From an uncultured Verrucomicrobiales bacterium (GTDB lineage Bacteria; Verrucomicrobiota; Verrucomicrobiia; Verrucomicrobiales; DEV007): a stretch of DNA of 64,000 bases. A model generated the notes under the pieces. The model ran no database searches and was not told where the DNA came from. It saw nothing but the letters and a program-made list of their open reading frames with translations. Position numbers and translations under genes: made by a program. Below, piece after piece: positions 11,028 through 21,810 of the stretch. Every line of letters starts with the position of its first letter. Within the stretch, counting starts at the first letter, position 1. The stretch is from NCBI GenBank assembly GCA_964500945.1, contig CAZCRA010000002.1, forward strand, positions 27,683 through 91,682, in the 5' to 3' direction.

Positions 11028-11528
11028 ATGCGGAGAAAGCGGCGGTTTGGGCGTAGGATCCTCTGCGTGGAATTGGTCCGCTTCAAACATGCGCGCTTCA
11101 CGGCGCGATTTCCGAAAGACTACCGCTATTCGCGGTCTCACTACTGGTTGTGTCCGGACCCTGAGCAAAGCGGGTTTTGGCGTGTGGGATTCACGAAGTT
11201 TGCCACTCGGATGCTCGGCGAGTTGGTGGAAGCGGAGTTCGAAGTGGGGGAGGGGGATCCGGTCGAACCCGGGCAGCAAATCGGCTGGGTCGAGGGGTTC
11301 AAAGCGGCGAGCGACGTGTTTTGCACGATGAGCGGCCGCTTTGGAGGGATGAACCCGGTGCTGCGGGAGGATGCGTGCATCATTCGCGAGAGTCCGTATG
11401 TCGATGGATGGCTTTACCGGGTGGAAGGCGAACCGGAAGCGGAGAGCATGGACGTGGAAGGTTACCTGGCCCATCTCGAGGGTCTCATCCGGCAGATGGA
11501 GAAGGATCCGAAGTATGCCGACGATTGA
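11028..11528 (+). CDS. Glycine-cleavage H-protein-like lipoyl-carrier protein, orphan (no gcvT or gcvP nearby)
   Basis: The translation shows YRYSRSHYWL...GFTKFATRMLGELVEAEF...QIGWVEGFKAASDVFCTMSG...GWLYRVE. The lipoyl-lysine context E-x-x-K-A-A-S-D is retained, with the K codon at 11301-11303. The start is trimmed to the ATG at 11028. Confidence 0.75.
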   Translation: MRRKRRFGRRILCVELVRFKHARFTARFPKDYRYSRSHYWLCPDPEQSGFWRVGFTKFATRMLGELVEAEFEVGEGDPVEPGQQIGWVEGFKAASDVFCTMSGRFGGMNPVLREDACIIRESPYVDGWLYRVEGEPEAESMDVEGYLAHLEGLIRQMEKDPKYADD

Positions 11529-11609: not shown

Positions 11610-12863
11610 ATGATGATCGAACTTTCCAGCCGGATGCTCCGGACGGTGGACCCAAAGCTTCTCTGGAATTTTCAGTGGAACTTTGGGGTCAAAGGCATCC
11701 GCTCGATCCAGCTTTTTAAGAAGCGGCTGCGCGAGGGGGTGTATTTCCCTCCGTTCCTCTACCTATCGATTCTCAACAGCTGTAATCTTCGGTGTCAGGG
11801 GTGCTGGGTGGACGTCGACCGTCCGCAGACGAAGATCGAGCTGGATGATCTGAACCGGATCGTGAACGACGCCCGGGAACACGGGAACAGCTTCTTCGGG
11901 ATCCTGGGGGGCGAACCGTTCATGCACCCGGAACTGTTCGATTTCCTGGCGCAGCATCCGGATTGCTTCTTCCAAGTTTTCACGAACGGTCAACTCATCA
12001 CTCCGAAGAAGGCGCGAACGCTTCGGAAGCTGGGCAATGCGACGCCGCTGATCAGCATCGAAGGCGATGAACTCGTCTCGAACGAGCGCCGGGGTGGAAA
12101 AGACGTTTACGAGCGCACTCTGCGGGGGCTGCGGAACGCTCTGGACGAGAAATTGCTGACGGGGGTGGCGACGAGCGTCTGCAAGACGAATCTCGATCTG
12201 CTGGTGAGCGAGCGGTGGCTCCGCCAGCTAGTCGATTTCGGCGCGCACTACGTGTGGTTTCACACTTACCGGCCCGTCGGTCCGCAAATCCACGAGGAAT
12301 TGGCACTCAGCCCGGAGGAAGCGCGGCGGGTCCGGCAGTTCGTGGTCGACATGCGCTGCAAGATGCCGATTGGGATCGTGGATGCCTACTACGACGGCGA
12401 GGGGCGCGCGGTCTGTCCGATGGCCACCGGAATCAGTCATCACATCGGGCCGACGGGTGGGGTGGAGCCGTGTCCGATCATCCAGTTCGCCACGGAGTCT
12501 GTTGGCGAGCGCTCCATTTACGAAACCCTCACGCAGAGCGGATTCATGAAGGATTTCCGCGAGACGGCGGCGCAACACACGCGGGGATGCATCGTGCTCG
12601 AGCGGCCGGATCTGGTGAAGGAGTTGGCGGAGAAACATGGGGCGCGCGACACGACACTGCGGCAGACGGCGATGGCGGAATTGGAAGGGATGACACCCAA
12701 AGGCAGCCAGTATCAGCCGGGCTGGGAGATCCCGGAGAAGCACTGGCTTTACCGCATTGCCAAGCATTTCTGGTTCAACGATTTCGGCGCTTACCAAAAC
12801 CAGAAGCCCGAGAAGCCGCGCATGCTGAAGCGGATCGCGCCCGTGACGGCGGTGCAGAACTGA
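11610..12863 (+). CDS. Radical SAM enzyme with a Cys-containing C-terminal extension; the layout resembles HpnH
   Basis: The CxxxCxxC motif is SILNSCNLRCQGCWV, with Cys codons at 11781, 11793 and 11802. GGEPF is present. A basic amphipathic leader precedes the cluster motif. The C-terminal segment is AVCPMATGISHHIGPTGGVEPCPIIQF. Confidence 0.85.
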   Translation: MMIELSSRMLRTVDPKLLWNFQWNFGVKGIRSIQLFKKRLREGVYFPPFLYLSILNSCNLRCQGCWVDVDRPQTKIELDDLNRIVNDAREHGNSFFGILGGEPFMHPELFDFLAQHPDCFFQVFTNGQLITPKKARTLRKLGNATPLISIEGDELVSNERRGGKDVYERTLRGLRNALDEKLLTGVATSVCKTNLDLLVSERWLRQLVDFGAHYVWFHTYRPVGPQIHEELALSPEEARRVRQFVVDMRCKMPIGIVDAYYDGEGRAVCPMATGISHHIGPTGGVEPCPIIQFATESVGERSIYETLTQSGFMKDFRETAAQHTRGCIVLERPDLVKELAEKHGARDTTLRQTAMAELEGMTPKGSQYQPGWEIPEKHWLYRIAKHFWFNDFGAYQNQKPEKPRMLKRIAPVTAVQN

Positions 12864-12904: not shown

Positions 12905-13231
12905 ATGGCGGAAGAAAAGATCGTTTATTGCCGGTGCGCCTATGCGCAGGTGGTGCCTGAGGACGTCAAGGCCGAGGTGCTCCAGCGCCTGGCCGGGTCG
13001 GGCGTCAGTTTCGAGTGCGTTTCGGACCTGTGCGAGATGTCAGCGCGGCGGGACCCTCGTCTCGAAGCCATTTTTGGGGAGGGAGAAGTCCGGGTAGCGG
13101 CCTGCCATCCCCGAGCGGTTCGATGGCTGCTGCACGCCGCCGGGATCGACGCTCCGCCGGAGCGGGTGAAGGTCGCCAACATGCGGGAGGACGACGCCGA
13201 GCGCGTGGCGAATGAGACGCTGGGCGAGTGA
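12905..13231 (+). CDS. Small Cys-rich protein, tentatively MvhD/FlpD-like
   Basis: Only the last 108 codons of track ORF 12215..13231 are credible, because the upstream part overlaps the radical-SAM gene in another frame. The product is MAEEKIVYCRCAYAQVVPEDVKAEVL...FECVSDLCEM...VRVAACHPRAV. The pattern KIV-x-C-x-C ... ACHP resembles the hydrogenase delta-subunit-like fold as I remember it. Confidence 0.55.
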   Translation: MAEEKIVYCRCAYAQVVPEDVKAEVLQRLAGSGVSFECVSDLCEMSARRDPRLEAIFGEGEVRVAACHPRAVRWLLHAAGIDAPPERVKVANMREDDAERVANETLGE

Positions 13232-13265: not shown

Positions 13266-14165
13266 ATGATCGATCAGGAAAACACACCATTTCAGGTCGT
13301 GCTCTACGAGGGGCGCGGGGCCGGTTTGATGGAAGCTTCGATGCGCTGGGGGCTGATGGGCCAGCTGTTGGATCAGGGCTATTGGGTCACCCGGGTGGCG
13401 CCAGACGGAGGCGGATTCGCTAAACCGGCGGGGCGATTGCTGGTGTTGGGGCAGTTTCCCGATGGCACGCCGGCCCTGGAGGATGCCGCAGGCGAGATCG
13501 AATTGGACGTTCGGGACATCAGTGGGCTGGATGAGGCGTTGATCCTGGCGCTCGTCGAAGAACGGCGGGGTGCCCACGCGATGAACCAGCCGGCGGGGGC
13601 GGCAGCGGTCGCGGGGACGAAATCGTGGAAGCCATGGTTCCCGGTGATCGACTACGATCGCTGCACGAACTGCATGCAGTGCCTGAGTTTCTGCCTGTTC
13701 GACGTGTATGGGGTCGATTCGGAACAGCGCATCCAGGTTCAGAACCAGGACAACTGCAAAACGAATTGCCCGGCCTGCTCACGGGTTTGTCCGGAGGTGG
13801 CGATCATGTTCCCAAAATACAAGGCCGGCCCCATCAACGGCGCGCCGGTCCGTCAGGAGGATCTGAACCGGGAAAAAATGAAGGTGGACATCTCCGCGCT
13901 ACTCGGTGGCGACATTTACTCGAACCTGCGGCAGCGAAGTGAAGCGGCGAAGTCGCGATTCGCGAAAGAGCGCAGCCCGGACAAGGCGTTGGACGAGCGG
14001 AAACGGTGTCTGACGAAGCTGCAGAGCGATGGCATCATCCCGACCGACGTGCTCGAGGAGATTGATCTGGCTTCGCTCCCAAGCATGGACGACATCCAAC
14101 GGAAGGCGAAAGAGGCGGCGGCGAAGGCTCAGGCGGCACTGGATGCGCAGAAGCCCTCGGAATGA
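13266..14165 (+). CDS. Ferredoxin-domain protein with two [4Fe-4S] motifs, an unknown N-domain and a charged C-terminal tail
   Basis: The first motif is CTNCMQCLSFC (CxxCxxCxxxC). The second is CKTNCPACSRVCP (Cx3CxxCxxxCP). Confidence 0.8.
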   Translation: MIDQENTPFQVVLYEGRGAGLMEASMRWGLMGQLLDQGYWVTRVAPDGGGFAKPAGRLLVLGQFPDGTPALEDAAGEIELDVRDISGLDEALILALVEERRGAHAMNQPAGAAAVAGTKSWKPWFPVIDYDRCTNCMQCLSFCLFDVYGVDSEQRIQVQNQDNCKTNCPACSRVCPEVAIMFPKYKAGPINGAPVRQEDLNREKMKVDISALLGGDIYSNLRQRSEAAKSRFAKERSPDKALDERKRCLTKLQSDGIIPTDVLEEIDLASLPSMDDIQRKAKEAAAKAQAALDAQKPSE

Positions 14166-14324: not shown

Positions 14325-16079
14325 ATGGCTTCCCCATCCAGCGAAATCCAGACCGTCAAGCTTCCTCAAAGCGTTCCGGTGACCACGACGCGGTTCCGGC
14401 CGCCCAAAAAGAACATTCCTCAGACGAAGGAAGAGCGAGACGCGTTGCTGGAGCGCGTGCGAGGGTATTTGGAGGAGGTTTCGGTGGTCCAGCCCATGCC
14501 GCTGGACGAGCTGGAGACCCACGCGCGGAAGATCCTGGAAGAAGCGGGGCTGGACCTGATTTACCTGCACTACACGGCAGTTTTGTTGAGCAACGAAGCG
14601 TGGCGCGAGGCGCTGGCGACCATTCCGTATGAACGGCGCCTGTTGCTGATGCCGAAGTGCCTGCGGGTGGAGGAAAAATGCCCGGCGCCATTCGACGAGT
14701 TCGGGTTGCTCTGCAAGCAGTGCGGGCTCTGCACGATTCAAGATTTCCAAAACGAAGCGGAGCGCTTGGGCTATGCGGTCCTTGTGGCGGAGGGATCGGC
14801 GATCGTGATGTCGCTGATTCAGACCGGGAAGATCGAGGCGATCGTAGGTGTCAGCTGCCTGCCCGTGCTGGAGCGGACCTTTCCCTACGTCGAAGCGGCG
14901 GCCATCCCGGCCATTGCGGTGCCTTTGCTGCAGGACGACTGCATCAACACGACGGTCGATAACGACTGGGTCTGGGATTACATCCACCTCACGAGCGAGG
15001 ACAAGACCCGGCGGTTGAATCTGAATCAGCTTCACGACGAGGTGCGGAGTTGGTTCGAACCCGAGACCGTCGAGGGGTTGATGGGCGAACCGGATGGGCA
15101 CGCGGAGCGGGTGGCGCGCGACTGGCTGCTGAAGGACGGGAAACGCTGGCGTCCGTTTTTGACCGTGGCGACTTACCAGGCACTGCGAGACGAGCCCGAG
15201 GCGCCGGTGCCAGACGGGGTCCGAAAGCTGGCTCTGGCGGTCGAGTGTTTCCACAAGGCATCGCTGATTCACGACGATATCGAGGATGAGGACCGGGAAC
15301 GCTACGGCGAGGCGACGCTGCACGAAGCCGAGGGGCTGCCGGTGGCGCTGAACGCTGGGGATCTCTTGATCGGCGAGGGCTACCGGCTCATCGCGGAAAG
15401 CGGCGTGCCGGCGGAAGCGATCGCGACGATGGTCCGTGCCGCGTCCGATGGGCAGCGGGAACTGTGCCGGGGTCAGGGAGCGGAGCTGGCCTGGGCACGC
15501 GATCCGTCGCCGCTGAAAACCACGCAGGTGCTGGAGATCTTCCGGTTAAAAACGGCGCCGGCCTTCAACGTGGCGCTGCAACTGGGTGCGGCAGCAGCCG
15601 GCAGAGCCGCCGAGGTGGACGGCACGCTGGCCAAGTTCAGCGAAGCGCTGGGCATCGCCTACCAGATCCGTGATGACATGGACGATTTGTCCCAGGATTC
15701 CGGCGACAACGAACAGCGGGCCTTCCGGCCGAGCGTGATGTTGGCTAAGGGGCGCGAGATGGCGAAGGGTGACGCGAAGAAGCTATTGGAACGGCTCTGG
15801 CGGAGGGAGATGGAGGACGCGGATTACGACGAGGTTCGGCGAATCGTTCACCAGGCTGGGGCGGATGAGAAGTGCATGCTGATGCTGGAGACCTACAAGG
15901 AAACGGCGATTCGCAGTTTAGCGGATTTGGAAAACGCGAATCTGAAAGGCCTGCTGCGCCGGGTGATCGGGAAGATCTTCAACGATCTCGAGATCAAGGG
16001 CTGGTGCCGGGAGTTCGAGGTGCGCAACGGGGTCCGGGAAGAGTCCGAAGCGAAATCGCAACCGGCCGCCGTGGCCTGA
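14325..16079 (+). CDS. Fusion protein with an N-terminal DUF116-like Cys-rich domain and a C-terminal polyprenyl diphosphate synthase
   Basis: The N-terminal half reads RRLLLMPKCLRVEEKCPAPFDEFGLLCKQCGLCTIQDF...IVGVSCLPVLE. The C-terminal half reads GKRWRPFL, FARM FHKASLIHDDIEDED (15273-15287) and SARM AYQIRDDMDDL (15672-15686). Confidence 0.8.
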   Translation: MASPSSEIQTVKLPQSVPVTTTRFRPPKKNIPQTKEERDALLERVRGYLEEVSVVQPMPLDELETHARKILEEAGLDLIYLHYTAVLLSNEAWREALATIPYERRLLLMPKCLRVEEKCPAPFDEFGLLCKQCGLCTIQDFQNEAERLGYAVLVAEGSAIVMSLIQTGKIEAIVGVSCLPVLERTFPYVEAAAIPAIAVPLLQDDCINTTVDNDWVWDYIHLTSEDKTRRLNLNQLHDEVRSWFEPETVEGLMGEPDGHAERVARDWLLKDGKRWRPFLTVATYQALRDEPEAPVPDGVRKLALAVECFHKASLIHDDIEDEDRERYGEATLHEAEGLPVALNAGDLLIGEGYRLIAESGVPAEAIATMVRAASDGQRELCRGQGAELAWARDPSPLKTTQVLEIFRLKTAPAFNVALQLGAAAAGRAAEVDGTLAKFSEALGIAYQIRDDMDDLSQDSGDNEQRAFRPSVMLAKGREMAKGDAKKLLERLWRREMEDADYDEVRRIVHQAGADEKCMLMLETYKETAIRSLADLENANLKGLLRRVIGKIFNDLEIKGWCREFEVRNGVREESEAKSQPAAVA

Positions 16080-16095: not shown

Positions 16096-16980
16096 ATGTC
16101 GCTGCGGCTGGAAATGCTCCAGGTGGCGCGCCTGGCGCCGCGGGTGCTCGATGAAGCGGCGGATCTCGTGTGCGAATTCGTGCGCGGACAGGAGCGGGAC
16201 GATGGCGGGTATCCGGACCGCGATGGCAAGAGCGATCTCTACTACACGAGTTTCGCCGTCGATGCGTTGACGGCGCTGCAGGATCCGCTGCCGGAGCGTC
16301 GTCTGGCGGGGTTTTTGAGGGGTTTCGGCGACGGTGACGGGCTGGATTTCGTCCATTTATGCTGTCTGATCCGGCTGTGGTCGGTGCTGCGCGAGGAGAG
16401 ACCGGAACCGGCGCAGCTGGAGCGGATGTTCAAGCACCTGGAACGGTTCCGGAGCGACGATGGGGGGTTCGAGGTGGATGCGGAGGCGGATGAGGGTTCG
16501 GCCTACGGCTGCCTCCTGGCCTACGGGGCCCACGCGGATCACGGGCGGGAGGTGGAACGGCTGGAGGCACTGGCGGACTGTCTGGACCGGTTGCGGGCCG
16601 AAGGCGGGGGATGGGCGAACGACTCGATGATTCCGATCGGTTCCGTTCCGGCCACGGCGGCGGCGGTGACCGTGAGCCGGAACCTGCGGCATCCTGTTCC
16701 GGAGGGAACGGGCGACTGGCTCATGGCGCAGTTCCATCCGCAGGGCGGGTTTGTGGCGGTGCCGGGTGCGCCGATGCCGGATTTGCTCTCGACGGCGGTG
16801 GCGCTGCATGCGCTGGACGGGTTGCAGGCGGATTTCGAGGTGCTCAAGGAGCCCTGCCTGGATTTCATCGACAGCCTATGGACGAACGCCGGCGGGTTTC
16901 ACGGGAATTGGAGCGATGACGAACTGGATTTGGAGTACACCTACTACGGCTTGTTGGCGCTGGGGCACCTGGCGCTGTAG
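16096..16980 (+). CDS. Small prenyltransferase/squalene-oxidase-repeat (alpha/alpha-toroid) protein
   Basis: The 294-aa product carries repeated motifs: ERDDGGYPDRDGKSDLYYTSFAVDAL, RSDDGGFE, RAEGGGWAND, HPQGGFVAVPGAPMPDLLSTAVALHAL and NAGGFHGNWSDDELDLEYTYYGLLAL. I see no obvious Zn-ligand Cys/His at the positions used by protein prenyltransferase beta subunits. Confidence 0.7.
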   Translation: MSLRLEMLQVARLAPRVLDEAADLVCEFVRGQERDDGGYPDRDGKSDLYYTSFAVDALTALQDPLPERRLAGFLRGFGDGDGLDFVHLCCLIRLWSVLREERPEPAQLERMFKHLERFRSDDGGFEVDAEADEGSAYGCLLAYGAHADHGREVERLEALADCLDRLRAEGGGWANDSMIPIGSVPATAAAVTVSRNLRHPVPEGTGDWLMAQFHPQGGFVAVPGAPMPDLLSTAVALHALDGLQADFEVLKEPCLDFIDSLWTNAGGFHGNWSDDELDLEYTYYGLLALGHLAL

Positions 16981-18783
16981 GTGAGGTTTGGTCCGCGCGA
17001 GGGTATCGCAACAGGTGAAGGGATGGATTTCGAGAGCGTGAGGTTGAAGGCGCGGGAACGGCTGCTGGCGGAGCGGACGGCCGGCGGCTGGTGGACCGGA
17101 GAATTGTCCAGCAGTGCGCTCTCGACCGCGACGTCGATCGTGGCGTTGACCTTGGTGGAGGCGCACCGGGAGCGGATCAGGCGGGGGGTGACGTGGCTGG
17201 CTGGGCAGCAAAATCCGGATGGCGGCTGGGGCGACACGGACCGGAGTTTTTCGAATTTGTCGACGACGCTCCTGAGTTGGTCGGCGCTGAAGTTGGCGAG
17301 GCATCCGGACCGGGCTGCGTTGGAGCGGGCGGAGAGGTGGATTGGTGAGCGGGCAGGAGATTTGGATCCGGAGACGCTGGTCAGGAAGGTAACGGAGAGG
17401 TATGGGCGCGACCGGACGTTCGCGGTGCCGATCCTCATGATGTGCGCAATCTGCGGGACCCTGGGCGAACCGGATGCCGCTTGGCGCCGGGTGCTACCGT
17501 TGCCGTTCGAATTGGCGGCCTTTCCGAGGGAGTGGTTCGCGGCTTTGCGGCTGCCGGTGGTGAGCTACGCGCTTCCGGCCTTGATCGCGATCGGCTATGC
17601 GCGGCACCATCACGCGCCTGCGCCGGTGCCGTTGAGATGGGTCCGGTCGATGATTTGGCCACGGGTATCTGGGCTGCTCGAGCGAATCCAGCCCGGGAGC
17701 GGTGGTTTTCTGGAGGCCGCGCCGTTGACGGGCTTCGTGACGATGGCGTTGGCCTCAGCGGGCGAGAAGGATCATCCGGTGGCCCGCCGGGGTGTGGGGT
17801 TTCTGGTCGAGGGACAGCGGGAGGATGGGAGTTGGCCGATCGACACGAATCTTTCGACGTGGGTGACGACGCTGGCGGTGAAGGCGCTCTGGCGGGAGGA
17901 ACCCTGTACCGTGGAGGAGAGCGACGGGGTGTTGAGTTGGCTTCGGGCACAGCAGTATGTTCGGGTCCATCCCTTCACCAACGCCGCCCCGGGAGGCTGG
18001 GCCTGGACAAACCTGAGCGGCGGGGTGCCGGACGCCGATGATACCCCCGGAGCTCTTTTGGCCCTGCGTCTGCTCGATCCCGGGGCGCGAGAGGCGGCGG
18101 AAGCCGGGATTGGTTGGTTATTGGACCTGCAGAATTCGAACGGTGGAATTCCAACCTTTTGCCGGGGATGGGGCGCCCTACCCTTCGACCGGTCGAGCGC
18201 GGATCTGACGGCACACGCGCTGCGGGCGTGGGCAGTGTGGCGCGAGGAGGTGGCTGACGAACTCCGGGAGCGGATCGATCGAGCAGCGGCGCGCGCCATG
18301 GCCTTTCTGGCACGGCAGCAGCGGAGTGATGGCTCCTGGGTGCCGCTTTGGTTTGGCAATCAACACGTGACGGACGAAGAAAATCCGGTCTACGGGACGG
18401 CGAAGGTCGTGCTGGCGTTGAACGAAGTGCGCGACTGGTTGCCGGAGGGCGAGGTGTTGCGGAAGGGTGGCGTGGCTTGGCTGGAGACCGCGCAACGGGG
18501 AGACGGGAGTTTTGGCGGCGACGGAAGCGACAGCGGACCGGGGTCGATCGAAGAAACGGCGCTGGCGACGGAAGCCTTGATTCGCGCCGGGCGACTCGAC
18601 GCCGGGGGGCGGGGTTTGGAAGCGCTCGGCAAACTGACGGAGGGAGGAACGGCGTTTTCGGCGTCTCCAATTGGATTCTACTTTGCGAAACTGTGGTACT
18701 ACGAGCGGTTGTATCCGCTAATTTGGACCGTGAGCGCCTTTGAAGCGGGGAAGGCGGACGGGCTGGATTCTAGATTCACGTGA
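16981..18783 (+). CDS. Squalene-hopene-cyclase-like class II terpene cyclase
   Basis: QW-type repeats are present (QQNPDGGWG, QREDGSWP, QNSNGGIP, QQRSDGSWVPLWFGN, QRGDGSFGG). The catalytic-type motif is PGGWAWTNLSGGVPDADDTPGALLAL, with DADD at 18031-18042. The C-terminus is GFYFAKLWYYERLYPLIWTVSAF. A GTG at 16981 directly follows the upstream stop, and an alternative ATG lies at 17023. Confidence 0.8.
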   Translation: MRFGPREGIATGEGMDFESVRLKARERLLAERTAGGWWTGELSSSALSTATSIVALTLVEAHRERIRRGVTWLAGQQNPDGGWGDTDRSFSNLSTTLLSWSALKLARHPDRAALERAERWIGERAGDLDPETLVRKVTERYGRDRTFAVPILMMCAICGTLGEPDAAWRRVLPLPFELAAFPREWFAALRLPVVSYALPALIAIGYARHHHAPAPVPLRWVRSMIWPRVSGLLERIQPGSGGFLEAAPLTGFVTMALASAGEKDHPVARRGVGFLVEGQREDGSWPIDTNLSTWVTTLAVKALWREEPCTVEESDGVLSWLRAQQYVRVHPFTNAAPGGWAWTNLSGGVPDADDTPGALLALRLLDPGAREAAEAGIGWLLDLQNSNGGIPTFCRGWGALPFDRSSADLTAHALRAWAVWREEVADELRERIDRAAARAMAFLARQQRSDGSWVPLWFGNQHVTDEENPVYGTAKVVLALNEVRDWLPEGEVLRKGGVAWLETAQRGDGSFGGDGSDSGPGSIEETALATEALIRAGRLDAGGRGLEALGKLTEGGTAFSASPIGFYFAKLWYYERLYPLIWTVSAFEAGKADGLDSRFT

Positions 18784-19876
18784 GAATCTGGCGGATTTGG
18801 CTTTCTCGGGCTTCGATGCTTTCGCAGAGCTTCATTTGAACGCGGGCGCGGTGGAGGTTTTGGAGTTCGTGCCGGACTTTAAAATAGCGGTTTCCCGCCA
18901 GGTAATCGGTGTAGAACCGGAGCCCGAGTTCAAACGCGATCAGGCGAACGGCGTCGTAGAGGAAGCGATGGTCTGTCGGTGAAAGAAAACCGGAAGCCTC
19001 GCGGAGATAGCCCCGCATGAGGGCATCGAAAAGATCGAGATCGAAATAAACCTCGTCGAGGTCCTGGGTTTCCTCGCCGGCCGGGTTGCAGGCGCTCCGT
19101 GCGGCATCGCCGACGTCGTAGTGGATGAGCCCTGGTTTGACCGTATCAAGATCGATGATGGCCGTCCCTCGGCCGGTGACGTCATCGATCATGATGTTGG
19201 TGATCTTCGGGTCTCCGTGAATGGGCCGGATGGAGAGTTCACGGGAGGCCGCGGCATTTTCCAGGACGGGAACGAAGGACCGGCGATCCTCGATGAAGCG
19301 GGCGATCCGCTGCGATTCGGCCGAGGCCGTGAGGAGTCGCTCCCCCCCGGGGGTGGCGCGGATTTCGTCGAACGCCCGCAAGTAATCCGGCGTCACGTGG
19401 AAGCCTGGCAGGGTGTCGGCGAGATTTGCGACGGGAAAATCGGCGATGAGGTGATGAAAATGTCCCAGGACCCTGCCGGCTTCGAAGGCGTGTTCGGGGG
19501 AGTGCACCCGGTCGTGGCTTTTGGCCGAAGCGATCAGGGACAGCCCCCGCCAGTAGCTGCCATCGGGAGCTTCGAAGAGATCCCGGCCGTCGCGAGCGGG
19601 AATGATCCGTGGGAGCTGCCAGATCCGATCGGCTTCATCGGCGGCCGCTTCGATCCGGCGATGGGCATGCTCCGTGACGGCACGCATGTTCGCCATCACG
19701 GTTTCGGGCGATTTGAAGACGGCGTGATTGATGCGTTGGAGGACGAAGCGGTGTTCATCGAAGGTGGTGCGAAAGACGGCACAGAAGGTGTCGTTCACGT
19801 TCCCCGACCCGAGCGGTTCGACGGTCACCAGACGGCCGGGGACGTCGAAGGCCTTTGCGGCATCGGCTGGATTCAT
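18776..19876 (-). CDS. APH-fold sugar kinase, N-acetylhexosamine-1-kinase (NahK)-like
   Basis: The translation shows VEPLGSGNVNDTF, FVLQRINHAVFKSPETVMANMRAVTEH, IHGDPKITNIMIDD and IIDLDTV. The start is trimmed to the ATG at 19876, which overlaps the nadE stop (ATGA). The 3' end overlaps the cyclase gene by 8 nt (convergent). Confidence 0.7.
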   Translation of the reverse strand: MNPADAAKAFDVPGRLVTVEPLGSGNVNDTFCAVFRTTFDEHRFVLQRINHAVFKSPETVMANMRAVTEHAHRRIEAAADEADRIWQLPRIIPARDGRDLFEAPDGSYWRGLSLIASAKSHDRVHSPEHAFEAGRVLGHFHHLIADFPVANLADTLPGFHVTPDYLRAFDEIRATPGGERLLTASAESQRIARFIEDRRSFVPVLENAAASRELSIRPIHGDPKITNIMIDDVTGRGTAIIDLDTVKPGLIHYDVGDAARSACNPAGEETQDLDEVYFDLDLFDALMRGYLREASGFLSPTDHRFLYDAVRLIAFELGLRFYTDYLAGNRYFKVRHELQNLHRARVQMKLCESIEARESQIRQILT

Positions 19877-21810
19877 GCGTCGTCCAGTTCGTTCAGCTCC
19901 TGCTCGAAACCGCCGGAAAGGATCGGGAAGCGGCACCAGGTTTTCGGATCGAGGTTTTCGTCGTCCAGGTGGAACGAGGGGGCAAACCTCTCGCGCTTCC
20001 ACTGGTTCCTCGACCAGAGGCGGAAGAAACGGCGGACCCACTCGACCCGTTGCGGTCGCGGTTCGTCCGGAAAATCGACGGCGAGGCGCTCAACGATGGT
20101 GGCGGGAGACGATTTGTCACGGATCGCCGCGCGTTCGATGGCATCGAGGACGGGGAAAGGCATCAGATCGGCCTCATCGGTTTGCGCCTCGGATTCGGGT
20201 CGGAGCTCGGCGGTGGGTTGCTGAGCGTTGATGAGGGTGAGTTCGGGAATGGGACGGATGCGATCGCTTCCCTCGGTTTCGAGCCAGCGCAGCCAATGAC
20301 GGAGGAAGGCTTTGTCGATGCCGCAAATCGGGCTGAGACCGCCGCTGGTATCGCCGTCCATGGTGGTGTAACCCACGGCGGCTTCGGAGCGATTCGAGGT
20401 GGCGAGTAGAAGGGCGCCGCGGAGGTTTGCCAGCATCCAAATGCCGGGTGAGCGGACGCGCGCCTGGATGTTTTGGAGGGCCAAATCGTCCCGTTCCCAG
20501 CTCAACTCCCGGTCGAGCGCCGAGGAGGCGAGGCCGGTGTATTTTTCGATGAGACCGGAGATCTCCCATCGGTGAAACGATGCACCGAGGGATTTCGCGA
20601 GCGTCCGGGCGGCGGTCTCCGTAGTTTCCGAACTGTTCTCCGAAGCCTGGTAAACGCAGGTGAGAAGCTGGGCCATGCCGGGTTCAGGGAGCTTCAACCA
20701 GTCGCCCAGCCGGCGCACGACCTCGACGTCGCCCAGTTCCGCGCGGCTCAGATCGAGCATGATTCGGACCAAACACGCGATAGCACCGGAGTCAGCTCCG
20801 CCGCTGAGGGAAAGGACGAACCCCCGGCTATGGCTTTTGCGGAGGTAATCGAACAGAGCCAAAGCCACGGCGTGGGCGAATTCCTCTTCTTTGGAAAGGG
20901 TGGGGTAGGTGGTGCTGGGGTCGATCGAAACGGCTGGCTCGTCTTTCCAGGGGAAATCGATCGCGACATCGGCACCGTCGTCCGGGGCGACGGCGCGCCC
21001 GACGGTCCGGGCCTGCTCGCTGCGCAGGCGATCGAGAGGGATCGCTGCGTGAATGAGATGGTGTTCCCGAAAGCTGAGTCGAGGATGAGCCGCCAGAAGA
21101 CGGCCACCACAGGCGATGAGAGTGCCGCCATCGTAAATCGCGCGTCCGGCCTCGTTCCCGAGGAGGTTGGCGTAGAGGTAGACCGAACCGTAGGCGCGGG
21201 AGTGTTCGAGGACGTAGCGATGCCGGATGGCGTCTTTTCCAAAGGCAAAATGGCTGGCACTGGGATGGAGGATGACGTCCGCGCCGCGGGCGGCGAGCCG
21301 GGAACCGGGTGTCGACGCCACCCAGGCATCCTCACAGATTTCGATGCCGAACCGGACGCCGCCGATTTCGTAGAGGAGATCGCCGACCGGTACACCGTTC
21401 CAGGTGGTGACGACGCCGGGGGGCCAGGGTTTGAACCAGCGCGGCTCGTAGTGGAGGCCATCGCCGGCGAGATGTTGTTTGGGGGTGATGCCCAGGATGC
21501 GGCCATTCGCGATGAGGGCGATGGCGTTGTAGACCGCGCCACGAAGCCACAGCGGGATACCGAGCGTGAGGATCAGGTTCTCCGATTCGGTGGCCAGTTC
21601 CTCGACGGCCTGCCATGCGCGGTCGGCGAGATGCGGAGCGAGGAAAACGTCTTCGCACCCATATCCGGGGACGTTCATCTCCGGGAGGCAGAGAACCTGA
21701 GCCCTGGCCTCCCGGGCGGATGCCATGGCGGCGCGGATCCGGGTGAGATTACCCGGCCAGTCGAGCGGCGTCTGGTTCAGGGCCGCCGCGGCGACGGTGA
21801 TGGCATCCAT
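19873..21810 (-). CDS. nadE: Glutamine-dependent NAD+ synthetase (CN-hydrolase domain plus PP-loop synthetase)
   Basis: The nitrilase-type domain shows LCLPEMNVPGYGCED and FGIEICEDAW. The PP-loop is VLSLSGGADSGA. Confidence 0.9.
   Translation of the reverse strand: MDAITVAAAALNQTPLDWPGNLTRIRAAMASAREARAQVLCLPEMNVPGYGCEDVFLAPHLADRAWQAVEELATESENLILTLGIPLWLRGAVYNAIALIANGRILGITPKQHLAGDGLHYEPRWFKPWPPGVVTTWNGVPVGDLLYEIGGVRFGIEICEDAWVASTPGSRLAARGADVILHPSASHFAFGKDAIRHRYVLEHSRAYGSVYLYANLLGNEAGRAIYDGGTLIACGGRLLAAHPRLSFREHHLIHAAIPLDRLRSEQARTVGRAVAPDDGADVAIDFPWKDEPAVSIDPSTTYPTLSKEEEFAHAVALALFDYLRKSHSRGFVLSLSGGADSGAIACLVRIMLDLSRAELGDVEVVRRLGDWLKLPEPGMAQLLTCVYQASENSSETTETAARTLAKSLGASFHRWEISGLIEKYTGLASSALDRELSWERDDLALQNIQARVRSPGIWMLANLRGALLLATSNRSEAAVGYTTMDGDTSGGLSPICGIDKAFLRHWLRWLETEGSDRIRPIPELTLINAQQPTAELRPESEAQTDEADLMPFPVLDAIERAAIRDKSSPATIVERLAVDFPDEPRPQRVEWVRRFFRLWSRNQWKRERFAPSFHLDDENLDPKTWCRFPILSGGFEQELNELDDA

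Follow-up and report, generated by a model that had tools for sequence, protein, structure and literature searches.

The stretch of DNA analyzed here, referred to as the window, comprises 64,000 nucleotides from an uncultured Verrucomicrobiales bacterium (GenBank assembly GCA_964500945.1, contig CAZCRA010000002.1, positions 27,683 to 91,682 of the forward strand). It carries three consecutive plus-strand genes that encode a fusion of DUF116 with a polyprenyl diphosphate synthase (DUF116-IDS), a small protein with an alpha/alpha-toroid fold, and a class II terpene cyclase resembling squalene-hopene cyclase (SHC). A first-pass annotation, made from the letters of the sequence, had singled out the last two genes as a pair. 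In this study, genome comparisons reveal that the small protein is a real and specific companion of the SHC-like cyclase. Moreover, the three genes appear to form the core of a terpenoid pathway conserved in Verrucomicrobiota and Planctomycetota, to which a redox module is added. The three genes are arranged as follows.

14325–16079, plus strand: DUF116 and polyprenyl diphosphate synthase fusion of 584 amino acids (aa) (PF01976 and PF00348), immediately upstream of the small gene
16096–16980, plus strand: small alpha/alpha-toroid protein of 294 aa (P0001), from the listing of open reading frames (ORFs) and its translation
17023–18783, plus strand: SHC-like class II terpene cyclase of 586 aa (P0122); the alternative GTG start at 16981 gives 600 aa

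The TAG stop of the small gene occupies positions 16978–16980, and an in-frame GTG stands directly next to it at 16981, opening a 600-aa frame that ends at 18783. Both ORFs, including the stop at 16980 followed by the GTG, were thus found as first described. The 600-aa cyclase named at that stage does exist as a frame, but its start is likelier to be the ATG at 17023, which yields 586 aa. This start is favored because the public gene call (P0122) uses it, because homologues align from residues 2–12 of the 586-aa form, because a GGTGAAGGG stretch sits just upstream, and because the 14 residues after the GTG are unconserved in read-through alignments. A promoter and terminator scan of 10.5–19.5 kb returned nothing above chance.

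The distribution of the small gene was followed in a scan of one genome per species, which found 566 species with a relative of the small protein. The best 80 loci were analyzed; they belong to Verrucomicrobiota and to Gemmatales, Fimbriiglobus, and Tepidisphaeraceae, with 53–66% identity in the small protein. Seventy-one species loci had enough downstream sequence to be judged. The cyclase gene abuts the small gene on the same strand in 55 of these, with a median gap of 58 nt between high-scoring segment pairs (HSPs), lies within 3 kb of it in 5 more, and is missing from the locus in 11. All 13 genomes that were checked for the missing gene (the 11 that lack it at the locus and two whose loci were too short) carry the cyclase elsewhere, with 55–60% identity in full-length matches.

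A similar picture emerges from sampled phyla. Among 301 Verrucomicrobiota genomes, 35 have both genes (7 of them by profile only), 1 has only the cyclase, 2 have only the small gene, and 263 have neither. Among 201 Planctomycetota genomes, both genes are present in 51, the cyclase alone in 2, the small gene alone in none, and neither in 148. The small protein therefore accompanies the cyclase in 86 of the 89 sampled cyclase genomes (35 of 36 in Verrucomicrobiota), and it occurs in none of the 14 genomes that hold only a canonical SHC scoring over the TIGR01507 cut-off. Three of the seven small genes detected by profile only, in Verrucomicrobiota, immediately follow an IDS homologue or precede the cyclase. 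Fisher tests of co-occurrence gave p values of approximately 1e-42 to 1e-46, which ignore shared ancestry and thus overstate independence. Physical linkage is looser: the small and cyclase genes are unlinked in 36 of the 86 two-gene genomes, on different contigs in 30 and far apart on one contig in 6. The first-pass annotation had let the meaning of the pairing depend on the small gene being present and linked in orthologous loci; its absence was not seen, but unlinking occurs in this large minority of genomes. Collectively, the pairing is meaningful, being both conserved and specific.

Two individual genomes show variants of the arrangement. In a verrucomicrobial genome (G267:C6:43258-44509), the small gene is followed only by an N-terminal cyclase fragment (residues 12–115, in a 136-aa frame), and a full cyclase copy lies on another contig, so that the fragment looks like the relic of a broken adjacency. 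In another genome (G264), a single gene for the small protein is accompanied by two SHC-like paralogues, both full-length, with 54% and 52% identity.

The link of the small gene to DUF116-IDS is no weaker than its link to the cyclase. Among Gemmatales such as Fimbriiglobus, the small gene overlaps the end of the synthase gene, and the cyclase is located elsewhere. In further Planctomycetota, the cyclase comes first, followed by DUF116-IDS and then the small gene. In most Verrucomicrobiales, the small gene and the cyclase form a solitary pair, and the synthase is located elsewhere, 1.6 Mb away in one complete chromosome. DUF116-IDS accompanies the cyclase wherever this was checked, and it is present at 69–77% identity in 12 of 12 genomes with a solitary pair. 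The position of the small gene, next to the synthase in some genomes and next to the cyclase in others, fits an intermediate step in the pathway. Concerning the synthase itself (14325–16079; loci L097–L100), conservation is better than that of its partners, with 69–77% identity overall and up to 84% in the DUF116 part versus 53–63% for the cyclase and 53–66% for the small protein. It has Ala/Ser at positions −5/−4 before its first DDxxD (ECFHKASLIHDDIED). Small residues at these positions usually permit products longer than C15–C20.

The cyclase carries all the SHC hallmarks first listed for it, namely five QW-like repeats (at window positions 17194, 17800, 18115, 18304, and 18478), PGGWAW, DADD, and a C-terminal GFYFAKLWYYERLYP. 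Its sites are located as follows.

17551–17595, plus strand: LPVVSYALPALIAIG, a near-invariant hydrophobic block (invariant columns P178–G191) for which HMMER aligned no SHC counterpart
17989–18006, plus strand: PGGWAW of the cyclase (motif search)
18031–18042, plus strand: DADD (D337-A-D339-D340), class II proton-donor motif, aligned with D374-V-D376-D377 of SHC
18202–18216, plus strand: DLTAH (D394-L-T-A-H398), equivalents of SHC D447 and H451 (alignment to 1gsz)
18673–18717, plus strand: GFYFAKLWYYERLYP, C-terminal in the cyclase (motif search)

Additionally, VYGT (Y457) aligns with Y495 of SHC, and W280 and W443 align with W312 and W489, respectively. D337, D339, D340, D394, H398, Y457, W280, and W443 are all invariant among 51 homologues. 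With this catalytic machinery conserved, the 586-aa protein is predicted to be an active class II cyclase. Pfam assigns SQHop_cyclase_N and SQHop_cyclase_C (PF13249 and PF13243) to it, and the cyclase part of an AlphaFold model is confident and adopts a beta-gamma class II fold, with a TMt of 0.71 to SHC and approximately 0.8 to drimenyl diphosphate synthase.

The curated equivalog models place the enzyme apart from its best-known relatives. It scores 105.3 bits against TIGR01507 for squalene-hopene cyclase, where the cut-off is 431.1, and 87 bits against the NCBIfam equivalog for oxidosqualene cyclase (OSC), where the cut-off is 851. Judged by scores so far under both cut-offs, it is not a standard squalene-hopene cyclase. 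A six-frame search of this genome with TIGR01507 gave no match at E ≤ 1e-20, and 22 other genomes gave matches of 441–775 bits. The named homologues of the cyclase are from Verrucomicrobiales, and orthologues with 55–57% identity occur in Gemmatales, including Fimbriiglobus; Tepidisphaeraceae are also represented. Eight sampled genomes hold both an SHC that passes TIGR01507 and an SHC-like orthologue (47–58% identity), and the latter therefore represents a separate paralogous family rather than a short SHC. The initial impression that the protein is shorter than SHC is correct as to length (586 versus 631 aa), but this length is normal for the family, in which the full-length best matches span 572–647 aa, and the protein is not a truncated SHC.

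By taxon, length, domains, and paralogy, the cyclase fits the published "SHC-like" clade, which is itself defined by a published tree. SHC-like proteins of the PVC bacteria (Planctomycetes, Verrucomicrobia, and Chlamydiae) form a clade of unknown function (PMC7306690, PMC12414744), which extends through PVC, FCB (Fibrobacteres, Chlorobi, and Bacteroidetes), Spirochaetota, and Acidobacteriota (Santana-Molina et al. 2020, PMC7306690; McShea et al. 2025, PMC12414744). No function has been demonstrated for this clade (PMC12414744), and according to one of these two papers (PMC7306690 or PMC12414744), the genomic context of SHC-like genes points to a precursor other than squalene. An SHC-like gene has also been reported from the planctomycete Gemmata obscuriglobus. 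Our cyclase shares with the clade a PVC host, the 550–700 aa size class, the SHC N and C domains, the retained catalytic residues, the distinctness from and coexistence with canonical SHC, and a context that leads away from squalene, and nothing contradicts its membership. In contrast, a small toroid partner, or its co-occurrence, is unmentioned in the main texts of PMC7306690 and PMC12414744. Our literature search found no class II cyclase for which a partner of this kind is described, nor any account of a D/E/Y site at the zinc position of a prenyltransferase, in line with the first impression that a two-toroid arrangement is unusual.

The cyclase was also aligned to SHC of A. acidocaldarius (1sqc/2sqc/1gsz). 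The two share the beta-gamma didomain, the QW repeats, DxDD, and the equivalents of D447, H451, Y495, W312, and W489. In contrast, their identity is only approximately 23%; D313 of SHC is Ala/Val and F365 is Trp in the cyclase family. A 7-residue deletion in the cyclase drops C435 and F437 of the F434–F437 channel loop, and cyclase residues 127–245 are unalignable yet highly conserved. Regarding LPVVSYALPALIAIG, a further conserved stretch, RYGKDRTF...ILMxCAxCG, lies just upstream; no SHC equivalent of the two was aligned, and model confidence dips inside them (fusion residues 486–488). One possibility is that the LPVVSYALPALIAIG/RYGKDRTF block dips into the membrane or serves substrate entry, as an element peculiar to the SHC-like clade.

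The small protein matches PF00432 with 41 bits (E 1.7e-10; cut-off 26.5) and contains five GG(F/Y/W) prenyltransferase-type repeats, which agrees with the repeat type first assigned to it. None of the curated NCBIfam models match it, and a motif search of its sequence found no DxDD. Two of its segments are relevant to the following comparisons.

16777–16794, plus strand: P-D229-L-L-S-T233 of the small protein, which by eye resembles P-D-A-D-D-T of the cyclase without the catalytic Asp pair
16927–16938, plus strand: D278-L-E280-Y281 in the small protein, with D278 and E280 both invariant across the family and aligned to D297 and C299 of farnesyltransferase beta

In the AlphaFold prediction, six helical hairpins form one alpha/alpha toroid, with a predicted local distance difference test (pLDDT) score of 96.5 and a predicted TM-score (pTM) of 0.93. 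Among the Foldseek matches, 8paj/8pak (TMq 0.67–0.69), MstE (0.63), and the prenyltransferase beta subunits are equally near, all within 0.6–0.69, and all of these nearest folds bind isoprenoids. By sequence profile, the similarity of the small protein to farnesyltransferase beta is as weak as that to drimenyl diphosphate synthase (both E approximately 1e-6), and only the match to farnesyltransferase beta (E 1.5e-6) spans multiple repeats. In the profile alignment to rat farnesyltransferase beta, the zinc ligands D297, C299, and H362 correspond to D278, E280, and Y50 of the small protein. With D/E/Y instead of D/C/H, the Asp/Cys/His zinc site is therefore absent, and the first-pass statement that the protein lacks both DxDD and this site proved accurate. 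Recent duplication of the cyclase's beta or gamma domain was rejected as the origin of the small protein; profile–profile comparison with the cyclase family was insignificant (13% probability).

Conservation in the small family was assessed in a divergent alignment (A6) of 96 representatives with 35–56% identity. Only T233, D278, E280, and G290 are invariant, while R42, D47, Y49, Y50, D84, R93, Y137, W208, and D229 are near-invariant. Hence, the polar invariants are T233, D278, and E280, and the last two sit at the zinc-ligand positions of farnesyltransferase beta. According to DSSP, the inner helices carry the conserved residues at their N-termini, which in toroid enzymes form the active-site mouth of the central cavity. 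Clustered at 50% identity, the small family comprises 477 clusters at E ≤ 1e-30 and 1224 at E ≤ 1e-10, and the representatives listed are mostly 280–310 aa long.

Two groups of known proteins resemble the small protein most closely. The beta subunits of protein farnesyl- and geranylgeranyltransferase (1ft2_B, 1dce_B) are likewise single toroids of GGF-type repeats and share with it the conserved residues at the zinc-ligand positions as well as the profile match described above. In contrast, the small protein has D/E/Y rather than D/C/H, is approximately 100 residues shorter, is bacterial, and lies within a terpenoid cluster; a Pfam scan of the neighboring genes, confined to the locus and not extended to the whole genome, found no PPTA-repeat alpha subunit. 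The monodomain class II cyclases MstE (6sbb-6sbg) and Archangium/Cystobacter 8paj/8pak are also stand-alone toroids of approximately 300–350 aa in terpenoid pathways. They differ from the small protein, which has no literal DxD(D), shows negligible sequence similarity to them, and nearly always occurs together with a full beta-gamma cyclase.

Based on these observations, we propose a three-part scheme, to which we give an even chance. In the first step, DUF116-IDS would make an all-trans prenyl diphosphate. In the second and weakest step, the small toroid, acting between synthase and cyclase, would take the isoprenoid chain into its central funnel, the mouth of which would carry the D278/E280 cluster (with Y50, T233, and D229) at the place where farnesyltransferase beta holds zinc. 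It may then present the chain to the cyclase or convert it, for example by transfer or removal of the diphosphate. In the third step, D339, the central Asp of DADD, would protonate the terminal double bond with the help of H398 and Y457, and the SHC-like enzyme would close the rings. The substrate of the cyclase is probably a product of the linked synthase and not squalene, and we think that the small protein is a separate polypeptide and not a permanently bound subunit of the cyclase. A comparable division of labor is found in the sporulenol pathway of Bacillus (HepS/HepT, YtpB, SqhC), in which a dedicated prenyl diphosphate synthase is followed by an intermediate-processing protein and an SHC-family cyclase (PMC7306690). 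In contrast, YtpB is no toroid protein, SqhC branches off beside SHC, and neither DUF116 nor a radical SAM module occurs in the Bacillus pathway.

Several points weigh against this scheme. The role given to the small protein is drawn from genomic context and a remote alignment. Conservation of its Asp residues reflects in part the N-cap position of helices, which is typical of every prenyltransferase repeat, and does not by itself imply catalysis. A heteromer would likewise be compatible with the stop/start abutment and the adjacency with the cyclase in 55 of 71 loci, and the AlphaFold comparison of the pair described below is a weak test, being single-chain with a natural linker of approximately 15–28 residues, with only 15 paired rows, and judged by pLDDT and pTM. 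Finally, with an HpnD-like gene and a second SQS-family gene in the genome and no other cyclase, squalene is still a possible substrate.

The idea of a two-subunit enzyme, raised in the first-pass annotation, would make the class II cyclase a heteromer in which the small toroid, as a stable noncatalytic or regulatory subunit, shapes or gates the substrate channel. The same-strand adjacency with its short median gap, the stop/start abutment at this locus, the near-perfect co-occurrence, and the very strong conservation of the N- and C-termini of the small protein all speak for such a complex. To model the pair, we translated the in-frame ORFs through the stop and aligned 15 natural in-frame pairs (this one and 14 relatives) together with 80 unpaired homologues. 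In the resulting single-chain AlphaFold model (mean pLDDT 91.4, pTM 0.67), both parts fold well, but the linker is disordered (pLDDT < 50) and the two bodies are not docked; by our own estimate, rigid bodies of 294 and 586 residues that do not dock would give a pTM of about this size. Moreover, no genuine fusion of the small protein with the cyclase was found among five longer proteins with the small domain. Of the candidates, P0243 (906 aa) proved to be a frameshift artefact in which the last ~30 residues of the small protein are replaced by out-of-frame sequence, and P0123 (743 aa), considered as a long form of the family, contains an internal assembly duplication of approximately 150 residues. 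The fusion search and the read-through model agree in arguing, weakly, against a fixed heterodimer. The unlinked genes in 36 of 86 genomes, and the several lineages that place the small gene by the synthase and not by the cyclase, point in the same direction. A two-subunit enzyme is thus not borne out, and we regard it as unlikely.

Less probable still is a catalytic role for the small toroid as a monodomain class II-type cyclase or protonase in its own right, acting before or after the SHC-like enzyme on the same chain with D278-x-E280 as its acid. MstE, which uses DxD in place of DxDD (PMC12414744), provides a precedent for such an acid; D278 and E280 are invariant at the N-terminus of an inner helix, and the best Foldseek matches are 8paj/8pak and MstE. 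However, TM-scores to the prenyltransferase beta subunits are as high, the profiles of farnesyltransferase beta and drimenyl diphosphate synthase match equally weakly with a multi-repeat match only to the former, and the profile–profile comparison with the cyclase family is insignificant. A further reading, in which the 586-aa protein is the ordinary squalene-hopene cyclase of the organism and the small gene is an unrelated neighbor, seems very improbable to us. In its favor, all alkene-protonating residues are present, the genome (97.8% complete) holds no further SQHop_cyclase_C gene, and it encodes an HpnD-like protein (262 bits, cut-off 279) and a divergent SQS-family protein (C9:11266-12156, minus strand, and C27:19660-20700, plus strand). 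The first Asp-rich motif of the divergent protein is DTIAD, a squalene-synthase-like signature. However, these squalene synthase-type genes are located on contigs other than that of the cyclase, which is linked instead to a prenyl diphosphate synthase. In addition, the TIGR01507 score is far too low and the genome has no match to that model, the orthologues stand beside true SHCs in the eight sampled genomes, and the small gene tracks the SHC-like family and is absent from the SHC-only genomes.

The three-part core is preceded in the window by four genes, which make up the redox module.

11028–11528, plus strand: GcvH-like protein (Pfam/NCBIfam and translation)
11610–12863, plus strand: radical SAM protein (Pfam/NCBIfam and translation)
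12905–13231, plus strand: Cys-rich protein of 108 aa (translation)
13266–14165, plus strand: Fer4-domain protein (Pfam/NCBIfam and translation)

The full order is GcvH-like, radical SAM, Cys-rich, Fer4, DUF116-IDS, small gene, and cyclase, and all seven genes recur in 6 of the 80 loci, with most of the cluster retained in several others. The upstream redox module is partly kept in several more of these loci and in additional Planctomycetota loci (L101–L106). On the other side, a convergent APH-family kinase gene (18776–20041, minus strand) shares 8 nt with the 3' end of the cyclase gene; in one relative (L001), an unannotated 343-aa protein takes the place of the kinase, which is thus not in the conserved module. 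For the cultured Bipolaricaulota strain J31, a preprint (10.1101/2025.11.21.689855, Fig. S12 legend) lists a cluster in which a DUF116 protein and a polyprenyl synthetase stand with proteins labeled "squalene-hopene cyclase" and "adenosyl-hopene transferase" (radical SAM) and with hypothetical proteins. This cluster may represent the module of the window in a remote phylum, where the host can be cultured.

The SHC-like clade is the main uncharacterized branch of the triterpenoid-cyclase superfamily, and its substrate would constrain scenarios for the origin of hopanoid and sterol cyclases (PMC7306690, PMC12414744). The cyclase clade has already been published; the strict, specific co-occurrence with a toroid protein and the D/E/Y site were not found in the literature. 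The small-protein family, with its 477 clusters, now carries only a generic repeat annotation. We tentatively suggest, at somewhat less than even confidence, that the small toroid is an essential and previously unrecognized component of the SHC-like system, either as a zinc-free prenyl-transfer or diphosphate-processing enzyme or as an obligatory activator. The near-obligate toroid partner and the DUF116-prenyl synthase provide a testable recipe, in which the three genes are used together instead of the cyclase alone with squalene. If the suggestion is true, the SHC-like clade has stayed orphan because its real substrate comes from the DUF116-synthase and the toroid, and not from squalene or oxidosqualene. 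Co-expression of the three core genes would then reveal a new class of cyclic polyprenoid lipids of Planctomycetota and Verrucomicrobiota, which might serve as geological biomarkers.

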